This document shows positions 2,855-3,442 of a DNA stretch of 64,000 nucleotides, one piece after another. Within the stretch, counting starts at the first letter, position 1; each line of letters begins with the position of its first letter. The notes below the pieces were generated by a model. That model did not search any database. It worked only from the letters and a program-made list of their open reading frames with translations, and had not been told where the DNA came from. Source of the DNA: a virus. Its lineage: Duplodnaviria; Heunggongvirae; Uroviricota; Caudoviricetes. Both the position numbers and the translations under genes were made by a program. The stretch lies in the IMG/VR virus record IMGVR_UViG_637000265_000001; one strand, written 5' to 3'.

Positions 2855-3442
2855 TCAGCCCCGGCTGGATCCAGTCATCAGGCTCTTTCTTAAAGGGGGA
2901 GTATTGAAATCACGAAGAAGAGCCTCCCGCACCGCAGCATCCATGTCTGCACCACTGGCAAGTGCTTCAATCTCTGCCGCCACCTGCAAATACCCCATGC
3001 AACGGCCAATGCGTTTCATAACTCTGGTGTTTTCGTCTTTCAGGCATCTGATAGCGAGATTAATAATTTTCAGGCAGTGATGATGCGATGCCCGGACAGG
3101 TTTTCCGTTCTCATAAACGACGAACTCACCCTCTTCACAGGAAACCCTGAAAGGCCGATGGGGTTCCTGGTCTTTATCCGGTGCAGACGCAATAAAATCA
3201 CTTTTATGCTCTTCCTCTCCGGCACTGTTAACCGTAATGACGTACTCAGGCCGCAGGTAAGCCGCCTCTTTTTCTGACAATGCGGCCGGTAAAAACTTTT
3301 CCTGCAAAAACTTCATAAAAGTCTCGTGAGCGACTTTGTGGCAGTAATCGTAAATCGCCGCATAATGCTCATCGCGGCGTTTGTTTTCATCTTCAGAACT
3401 CACCAACGCCGACAAATTTTTTATTAAGCTCAGTGATTTCAT
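2855..3442 (-). CDS. hypothetical protein inserted between holin and endolysin
   Basis: 195 aa ORF, charged and Cys/His-containing, no TM segment; weak RBS. Confidence 0.45.
   Translation of the reverse strand: MKSLSLIKNLSALVSSEDENKRRDEHYAAIYDYCHKVAHETFMKFLQEKFLPAALSEKEAAYLRPEYVITVNSAGEEEHKSDFIASAPDKDQEPHRPFRVSCEEGEFVVYENGKPVRASHHHCLKIINLAIRCLKDENTRVMKRIGRCMGYLQVAAEIEALASGADMDAAVREALLRDFNTPPLRKSLMTGSSRG

Follow-up and report, generated by a model that had tools for sequence, protein, structure and literature searches.

A probable decayed late-operon accessory gene between the S21-type holin and SAR-type lysozyme genes of an IS-flanked prophage remnant

The S21-R21-Rz cassette of phage 21 combines a pinholin with a SAR endolysin. 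In phage T4, the RIII protein is a cytoplasmic antiholin cofactor. In cassettes of the phage 21 type, the stop codon of the holin gene abuts or overlaps the start of the endolysin gene, as in three loci compared here (L008, L012, L032). The same slot is filled in the Qin prophage of E. coli K-12 by the gene of YdfR (P76160; PF07041/DUF1327), a protein of 103 residues. YdfR has been reported to bind the N-terminal domain of RNase E, that is its catalytic half, in two-hybrid and pull-down experiments, and to co-purify with RNA (PMC13232886). Longer proteins of the YdfR family are encoded by other phages, such as gp05 of the Stx2-converting phage 86 (YP_794052.1, 268 residues) and a protein from E. 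coli (P0004, 333 residues). They carry a coiled coil and a C-terminal domain, the C-domain, both of which are homologous to the open reading frame (ORF) presented below. YdfR itself is devoid of the C-domain, to which its DUF1327 domain is fused in most of the relatives. The promoter-proximal region of the late operon, where such genes are found, is known as a hot spot for cargo, Stx phages being an example (PMC10462455).

The window, which designates the whole stretch of 64,000 nucleotides that was analyzed, contains a lysis cassette with flanking genes resembling those of phage 21: the holin belongs to PF04971 and has an MKSM dual start, and the N-terminus of the lysozyme is SAR-like (Table 1). 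Unlike the phage 21 arrangement, and like that of about two thirds of the close relatives, a gene is inserted between the two. The profile matched by the holin, PF04971, is Phage_holin_2_1, "Bacteriophage P21 holin S". Together with this match, the length of 71 residues and the MKSM dual-start motif at the N-terminus indicate an S21-type pinholin, a type of about 70 residues with two hydrophobic segments, which is predicted to form pinholes. The N-terminus of the lysozyme is rich in Gly and Ala and weakly hydrophobic, and the motif E-x8-D-x5-T is present at residue 35. This association of a T4-lysozyme-type motif (E-x8-D/C-x5-T) with an N-terminal segment is that expected of a SAR endolysin, for which release from the membrane is predicted. 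Scanning for consensus elements revealed a terminator-like hairpin upstream of the holin gene and no promoter-like site on the strand of the ORF near the accessory gene. The base composition of the slot between the holin and lysozyme genes bears no signature of foreign DNA.

Table 1. Position of the lysis genes, of the inserted ORF and of its lesions in the window.
Feature	Coordinates	Strand	Details
Rz i-spanin	1792-2274	minus	PF03245, E = 5.9e-30; phrog_13
Rz1 o-spanin ORF embedded in Rz	1833-2039	minus	Lipobox VVGC; from the ORF list
SAR-type lysozyme (endolysin)	2256-2789	minus	177 aa, intact; PF00959, E = 5.4e-24; phrog_7 endolysin
Ancestral C-terminal tail FKKEPDDWIQPGLTYLKRRI, out of frame	2832-2894	minus	Stop TAA 2834-2832; three-frame translation
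195-aa ORF, ATG start	2855-3442	minus	Between holin (3489-3704) and lysozyme (2256-2789), all on the same strand
CCCCCTTTAAG, 1-nt deletion (CCNCCC to CCCCC at 2895-2899)	2889-2899	minus	-1 frameshift; DNA alignment with four relatives
Native start of the accessory gene and stub frame	3393-3485	minus	ATG 3485-3483; stub MKHEEMNQRFNHLENEITELNKKFVGVGEF, 30 aa; TGA 3395-3393
AATAAAAAATTTG run with one extra T (TTT at 3416-3414, TT in relatives)	3413-3425	minus	+1 frameshift; alignment with CFSAN029787
S21-type class II holin (pinholin, predicted)	3489-3704	minus	71 aa; PF04971, E = 5.5e-35; phrog_9876 and phrog_20 holin
Terminator-like GC-rich hairpin followed by a T run, upstream of holin	3774-3789	minus	Consensus scan only; position as that of the late-operon tR'
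tRNA-Gly 3' end, 22 nt	3996-4017	minus	Right-hand limit of the conserved lysis-cassette block

The original prediction, made from the sequence alone, described an extra same-strand ORF between an S21-type holin and a SAR endolysin, encoding a charged, cytoplasmic-looking protein with cysteine and histidine residues. The ORF list and the PF04971 and PF00959 matches agree with this layout. The composition is also as described, with 30 acidic and 28 basic residues, 5 Cys and 8 His, and no hydrophobic or transmembrane segment (maximum Kyte-Doolittle 19-residue mean of 0.76). The ORF is real coding DNA and not a chance ORF. The naive probability of an open frame of 195 codons is about 9e-5. The product matches positions 137-288 of the 296 of the phrog_1085 profile with E = 4.7e-65 (220.9 bits), and positions 19-197 of a family HMM built here from the A3 alignment with E = 8e-89. 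The near-identical allele of E. coli CFSAN029787, which has 209 residues, matches database proteins with E = 1e-130.

The proposal of a gene of 195 codons must nevertheless be amended. An ORF with these ends is indeed listed, but its boundaries are not those of the gene, due to two frame disruptions. The ancestral gene extended from 3485 to 2832 on the minus strand, over 217 codons. As it stands in the window, the ORF consists of nine out-of-frame residues following an internal ATG, 174 residues in the ancestral frame, and a frameshifted tail of 12 residues (LRKSLMTGSSRG). It is probably what is left, after decay, of a late-operon accessory gene of 217 codons, located in a commonly used slot between holin and endolysin genes.

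The first disruption separates the gene from its native start. The native ATG is found 3 nt past the TAA codon of the holin gene (3491-3489), with a GGAG sequence 8 nt upstream, inside the 3' end of the holin gene. The family HMM matches the frame of this native start at profile positions 1-24, and the two pieces of the gene fall in different frames. When the window was aligned with CFSAN029787, a single indel was present, AATAAAAAATTTG in the window facing AATAAAAAATTG in the relative, so that the A6T2 run has gained one T. The CFSAN029787 copy, which is 99.7% identical at the DNA level, encodes the protein of 209 residues WP_001300760.1 from an ATG located 3 nt past the stop codon of the holin gene (GGGGAGAG-TAA-ATA-ATG). 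An uninterrupted frame starting at the native position, 3-5 nt after the holin stop in E. coli, is absent from the window, where the native start gives only the 30-residue stub. The internal ATG at 3442 is out of frame and is preceded only by GGA, three bases away. Because the extra T in the A6T2 run shifts the frame, the first nine residues of the ORF, MKSLSLIKN, are not ancestral sequence. A lack of translation had been named as a finding that would speak against the predicted gene, and the frameshift, which detaches the ORF from its native start and ribosome-binding site, goes part of the way towards it. The window copy would thus be a pseudogene, yielding at best the 30-residue stub and traces of a truncated protein from the weak internal start.

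The shifted allele is exceptional. In a collection of 15 billion proteins, the exact 195-residue product occurs on one contig (JGI/IMG), versus 379 contigs for the 209-residue allele. All 12 IMG/VR contigs that carry the stretch have TT and not TTT, the additional T being unique to the contig of the window. A programmed frameshift at the A6T3 run was considered and ruled out, as the shifted allele is missing from these 12 other copies and from all other contigs.

The second disruption replaces the motif that is the most conserved at the C-terminal end of the family. The 1-nt deletion is common to CFSAN029787 and to all of the IMG/VR loci that reach the site (11 of the 12), and is a feature of the whole widespread 209-residue lineage. 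The deletion appears to be older than the insertion of the T. The conserved core that was checked comprises a nearly invariant histidine (His136), the GR.MG.LQ.A motif and the tail PPFK..P..W..PG..YLK. In the window ORF, the C-terminal core is in frame up to ..DFNTPP, and the tail can be read only out of frame. Most family members end with ..NTPPFKKEPDDWIQPGLTYLKGRI, whereas the window copy and the whole 209-residue lineage end with ..NTPPLRKSLMTGSSRG. Few residues reach a conservation of 90% or more over the E. coli and Salmonella branches together (alignment A5), and the W, P, Y and L lost with the tail are among them. The presence of the 209-residue allele on so many contigs without the conserved tail means that the loss of the tail may not abolish function.

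The protein WP_001300760.1, which is annotated as hypothetical and found in E. coli CFSAN029787, Shigella flexneri and others, is a very close relative. Its gene has the same C-terminal -1 deletion and the same S, R and Rz neighbors, the identity of 99.7% holding across the slot. The window copy differs from it by the extra T and by one His/Arg difference, while WP_001300760.1 retains the native start. The alleles of the window match Shigella flexneri entries best.

The lysis cassette of the window is an isolated, IS-flanked fragment without the antiterminator Q, in an IS-rich genome. Homology to the intact prophage of CFSAN029787 is restricted to positions 1799-4017 of the window, with 98.7% identity. 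Beyond the right-hand limit, the four tRNAs and the Q gene of the related prophage are missing. Leftward of the cassette, an unrelated ORF is followed by an IS2 element at 1-1330. An IS3-family orfA starts at 6807. A real inactivating mutation is plausible in this decaying, IS-disrupted setting.

It was also considered that the extra T could be an assembly error. The locus would then contain the 209-residue allele with its intact start, encoding a late protein coupled to the holin and functional despite the altered tail. We find this unlikely, although far from negligible. The insertion is at the junction of an A6/T2 run, an error-prone context, and was found in a single contig of the large protein collection and in none of the 12 copies from IMG/VR. 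Apart from it, the gene is 0-1 residues away from the Shigella and E. coli 209-residue alleles, which are common. Weighing on the other side, a true mutation is equally natural in a region that is heavily disrupted by IS elements and has undergone other real decay, and even the 209-residue allele is devoid of the W, P, Y and L of the tail, which hardly vary in the family. That the T lies in a homopolymer and in one assembly counts against the reading of the ORF as a decayed remnant, since a sequencing or assembly error at this point would restore the 209-residue allele and its normal start. The best-supported conclusion is that the window copy is non-functional or nearly so.

The family to which the ORF belongs, phrog_1085 (PHROGs v4), is annotated as of unknown function. 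It is very small, since word-index and exhaustive HMM searches of 1.84 billion proteins yielded 42 representatives at 50% identity, including two artefacts due to repeats. These two are large repeat proteins, one of the NACHT/HEAT type and one with SRCR repeats, and were discarded because their repeats inflate the matches. All the named members are from prophages of E. coli, Shigella or Salmonella enterica, and all are annotated as "hypothetical" or "YdfR family/DUF1327 domain-containing". Literature searches turned up no study devoted to it. The family is therefore known but uncharacterized, and the window ORF is a damaged member and not a characterized lysis accessory protein.

Two architectures are found. 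One is that of stand-alone proteins of about 185-222 residues, to which the ancestor of the window copy corresponded. In the other, that of the long forms (268-333 residues), a DUF1327 head precedes the same coiled coil and C-domain. In the full form, the DUF1327/YdfR head is thus followed by a coiled-coil helix, then by a stretch that is variable and disordered, and last by a conserved C-terminal domain with a β-hairpin and helices. The C-domain ends with the motif ..GRCMGxLQVAAEIE..DNPPFKK.PDDW..PG..YLK.RI, upstream of which is found ..SHxH... The phrog_1085 profile, with its 296 positions, models the long form. Compared with this long form, the window ORF is missing both the DUF1327 head and the final conserved tail, and its 5' end is frameshifted. 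Like the window ORF, the E. coli members of phrog_1085 are located between S and R and on the strand of these genes.

A link to DUF1327-type families had been suggested and proved correct with one qualification, as the ORF is homologous to the part of the long "YdfR family" proteins that is not DUF1327. Identity to gp05 of phage 86 amounts to 57.6% over residues 49-187 (tblastn). The relative P0004 matches PF07041 with E = 6.6e-35. No Pfam match to PF07041 was obtained with the 195-residue ORF at E ≤ 1, nor did an HMM built from the DUF1327 heads of the long-form relatives match any frame of the 64-kb window. Judged by these profiles, the ORF does not count as a YdfR protein by the Pfam definition, and the lineage of the window is the head-less form of phrog_1085. 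No Pfam match was recorded for the N-terminal domain of the Salmonella members. When compared by hhalign with the DUF1327 head of E. coli members, this domain gave a probability of 91.7% with E = 7.6e-7. The two domains are homologous, and the head-less form has therefore probably arisen from an ancestral two-domain form.

Intact copies show dN/dS ratios of 0.16-0.48, indicative of purifying selection. The window copy outside its lesions has 0-1 residue differences with the 209-residue alleles of Shigella and E. coli. Frameshifted copies recur in the family, as a second one is found in CP076709, where it is annotated "frameshifted". The cysteine and histidine content raised the possibility of a conserved metal site. 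This was rejected, as several Salmonella members have Ser or Ala in place of the Cys of GRCMG, and near-invariance is limited to a single His.

Structures were predicted with AlphaFold2. A first model, obtained with an alignment of 26 E. coli sequences, had a pLDDT of 53 and was left out of the fold search. The second model, based on 56 sequences, had a mean pLDDT of 67. It consists of two long N-terminal helices (residues 3-64, pLDDT 65-85), with a leucine-zipper-like spacing in ..LENEITELNKKLSALV.., a disordered variable stretch (residues 65-109), and the C-terminal domain with three short strands and four helices (residues 110-217, pLDDT 72-85). Foldseek searches with the latter model returned no meaningful match in the PDB (best E = 0.71) or in BFVD (best E = 0.083). 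The only match of the PDB sequence profile, with E = 0.014, was to the N-terminus of a plant oligopeptidase A (DFDxPPF..V....PG) and was judged to be due to chance. Pfam and NCBIfam scans of the 195-residue ORF gave nothing above noise, the best matches being YqeY (0.051) and HEAT_2 (0.15). There is no Pfam model for the C-domain, and no similarity to anything of known function was detected.

Whether the gene could be a prophage gene for defense or superinfection exclusion, acting in lysogenic conversion like others of the Q-S-R region, was examined with PADLOC-DB 2.0. No defense family was matched at E ≤ 1 by the ORF or by its relatives P0002, P0004 and P0139. A defense function is extremely improbable. 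It would be in keeping with the narrow host range of the family, with its modular and shuffled architecture, and with the nature of the Q-S-R interval, a hot spot for cargo such as toxin-antitoxin genes, nanS-p and tRNAs. It is at odds with the absence of a PADLOC match for any form, and with the position on the late-operon strand with no promoter-like site nearby, which implies expression late in the lytic cycle and not in the lysogen. Likewise, no enzymatic or sensor domain was recognizable with Pfam, NCBIfam, the PDB profile, or Foldseek against the PDB and BFVD.

The occupancy of the slot was investigated with a sample of 80 IMG/VR loci having the holins closest to that of the window, 73 of which have the same type of lysozyme downstream. 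The holin and the SAR endolysin genes had been thought to be normally adjacent. This does not hold in this clade, since the holin gene abuts the lysozyme gene, leaving the slot empty, in only 26 of the 73 cassettes. The slot is filled in the other 47, and likewise in K-12 Qin, where the order is essQ-ydfR-rrrQ-rzpQ. The inserts are 312-1085 bp long, each encoding a DUF1327-type ORF on the same strand. In three further loci, a phage-21-type endolysin overlaps the holin stop. The occupied slot is therefore the majority state, and has long been known; the present occupant is what is rare. Its C-domain is encoded in only two of the 73 cassettes, both filled (L035 and L060). Searching with tblastn returned eight phage records, and megablast detected the occupant in 249 of 5426 complete E. 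coli genomes, with near-full coverage in 18.

The situation is different in the Salmonella branch. Four loci were examined, and in each the family gene is found in the interval between Q and a class II holin gene, on the same strand and beside ParE or HicAB toxin-antitoxin genes. One Salmonella-branch relative adjoins a different holin family, PF16080. As the family gene is upstream of the holin gene in Salmonella, the S-R slot does not define the family. What is conserved is a place in the promoter-proximal part of the late operon, and not the position between S and R. The location between Q and the holin gene argues for late-operon cargo over a core part of the lysis machinery. The cargo found in Q-S-R beside family members includes ParE, HicAB toxin-antitoxin pairs, nanS-p, tRNAs, and unrelated small convergent ORFs. 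A two-gene module with a conserved convergent partner downstream was considered and rejected, as the small opposite-strand ORFs of different loci are unrelated. No conserved partner gene of the family was found among the loci compared.

These loci also bear on the idea that the family regulates pinholin-triggered lysis from the cytoplasm, in a manner comparable to T4 RIII or another antiholin cofactor, and would set the timing through the cytoplasmic C-terminus of the holin. Such a regulator would be cytoplasmic and endowed with a coiled coil, as the family protein is. It would also account for the constant link to cassettes of class II holins and lysozymes in both the E. coli and Salmonella branches, and for the coupling of the gene to the S stop codon in E. 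coli. Nevertheless, a position relative to S that is not conserved, and a relative beside a PF16080 holin, fit poorly with this role. The product must be dispensable for lysis, with the slot empty in more than a third of the 73 cassettes and the C-domain restricted to two, and frameshifted copies recur. A role as lysis regulator is thus considered very unlikely. The likeness to T4 RIII is a functional analogy between small cytoplasmic phage proteins and not a claim of membership, as no similarity of sequence or fold to the window ORF was found.

The reading of the window ORF as a decayed accessory gene leads to a tentative picture of the intact relatives. Their product would be a cytoplasmic protein made late from the Q-dependent transcript. 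In E. coli, its translation would be coupled to that of S, with the Shine-Dalgarno sequence inside the S gene. The protein would probably oligomerize via the coiled coil and act through the C-domain. It may more likely be a host-directed cargo, linked to RNA metabolism, than a component of the lysis machinery. A role bearing on host RNA is suggested because most members are tethered to a YdfR head, which is reported to bind RNase E. The argument is a weak one, since this domain is fused in relatives and absent from the window ORF. It is conceivable, though rather doubtful, that the C-domain constitutes a new effector module of temperate enterobacterial phages. Produced along with the pinholin, and in most cases attached to the YdfR head that binds RNase E, it might reprogram the late decay of host RNA or tune the timing of pinholin lysis. 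In that case, stand-alone proteins without a head would represent a variant free of the tether.

The locus of the window matters little in itself, as its copy is most likely dead and the prophage remnant is scrambled. It illustrates that a single homopolymer indel can generate a plausible gene of 195 codons with a false N-terminus, and that reading such slots at the level of ORFs can mislead. Since the S-R slot of S21-type cassettes usually contains YdfR-type genes, occupancy alone is no signal. The C-domain of the long YdfR-family proteins is conserved and uncharacterized, and is confined to prophages of E. coli, Shigella and Salmonella, including Stx phages. Following the report on YdfR and RNase E, this C-domain, in an intact member of the family, is a reasonable target for the study of late-phase host takeover or lysis control.

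Similarity to the prophage of E. coli CFSAN029787 ends exactly at a remnant of a tRNA-Gly 3′ end to the right of the lysis cassette. Beyond this point, the CFSAN029787 prophage carries tRNA-Gly/Thr/Arg/Ile and Q, whereas the window contains unrelated sequence. No tRNA was detected within positions 1–12000 of the window. Recombination or integration may have produced a breakpoint here, within a phage-borne tRNA gene. The portal, large terminase and scaffold genes (8027–12000) share about 98% identity with counterparts found in many genomes of E. coli. Not one of the 5426 complete genomes of this species has them contiguous with the lysis cassette, so that pieces of different prophages are joined in the window.

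Features flanking the fragment that contains the lysis cassette, and insertion sequence features of the window
Feature	Position	Strand	Remark
IS2 InsC/InsD ORFs	1–366, 324–1229		left edge
172-aa ORF	1286–1804	−	after Rz; adjoins IS2
tRNA-Gly 3′ end, 22 nt	3996–4017	−	TCGATTCCCGCTGCCCGCTCCA
405-aa ORF	4459–5676	−	directly past the candidate breakpoint
DUF6971 ORF	5700–6155		next after the 405-aa ORF
Ant/KilAC-like ORF	6436–6843		after the DUF6971 ORF
IS3-family orfA	start at 6807		
ALIL pseudoknot	21099–21215		Rfam, 120 bits

The 405-aa ORF has neither a Pfam nor a PHROG match, and the Ant/KilAC-like ORF is interrupted by the IS3-family element whose orfA starts at 6807. On the other side of the cassette, the 172-aa ORF matches only the C-terminal part (99–230 of 233) of phrog_3527, of unknown function, and its N-terminus matches phrog_11822; it looks chimeric or truncated. 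IS-related stretches are found at 1–1330, 6807–7145 and 21099–21215, the last of them corresponding to an ALIL pseudoknot, the signal for programmed frameshifting in IS3-type elements. The region is heavily disrupted by insertion sequences, as is typical for Shigella.

The two modules of the long form, in which a DUF1327 head is fused to the family domain, are arranged differently in one E. coli locus. Between the holin and lysozyme genes of E. coli 2015C-3121 (L005 2745–3641), a stand-alone 213-aa family gene is followed by a separate 75-aa DUF1327 ORF, so that the modules are separate genes in reversed order. In the Salmonella branch (L006, L102, L103), the family gene comes first or second among the late-operon genes behind Q, and is adjoined by ParE or HicAB toxin-antitoxin genes. 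The N-terminal domain of the Salmonella branch is a divergent DUF1327 missed by Pfam.

The conserved tail of the family, L.DFDNPPFK..P..W..PG..YL (positions 222–278 of the profile from the alignment of the E. coli and Salmonella branches), weakly resembles the extreme N-terminus of the M3 oligopeptidase A (4ka8, E = 0.014), probably by chance.

The tail-less 209-aa allele (L003 6066–6695) is very common, occurring in 379 contigs of E. coli and Shigella despite the loss of this C-terminal motif, the best conserved in the family. The explanation is either that the tail can be spared or that a successful prophage carries the allele along by hitch-hiking. A further family member, also lying between the holin and lysozyme genes (E. 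coli CP076709, L004 3066–3672), is labelled 'frameshifted' in RefSeq, suggesting that the family gene is inactivated recurrently, or that homopolymer errors are recurrent.
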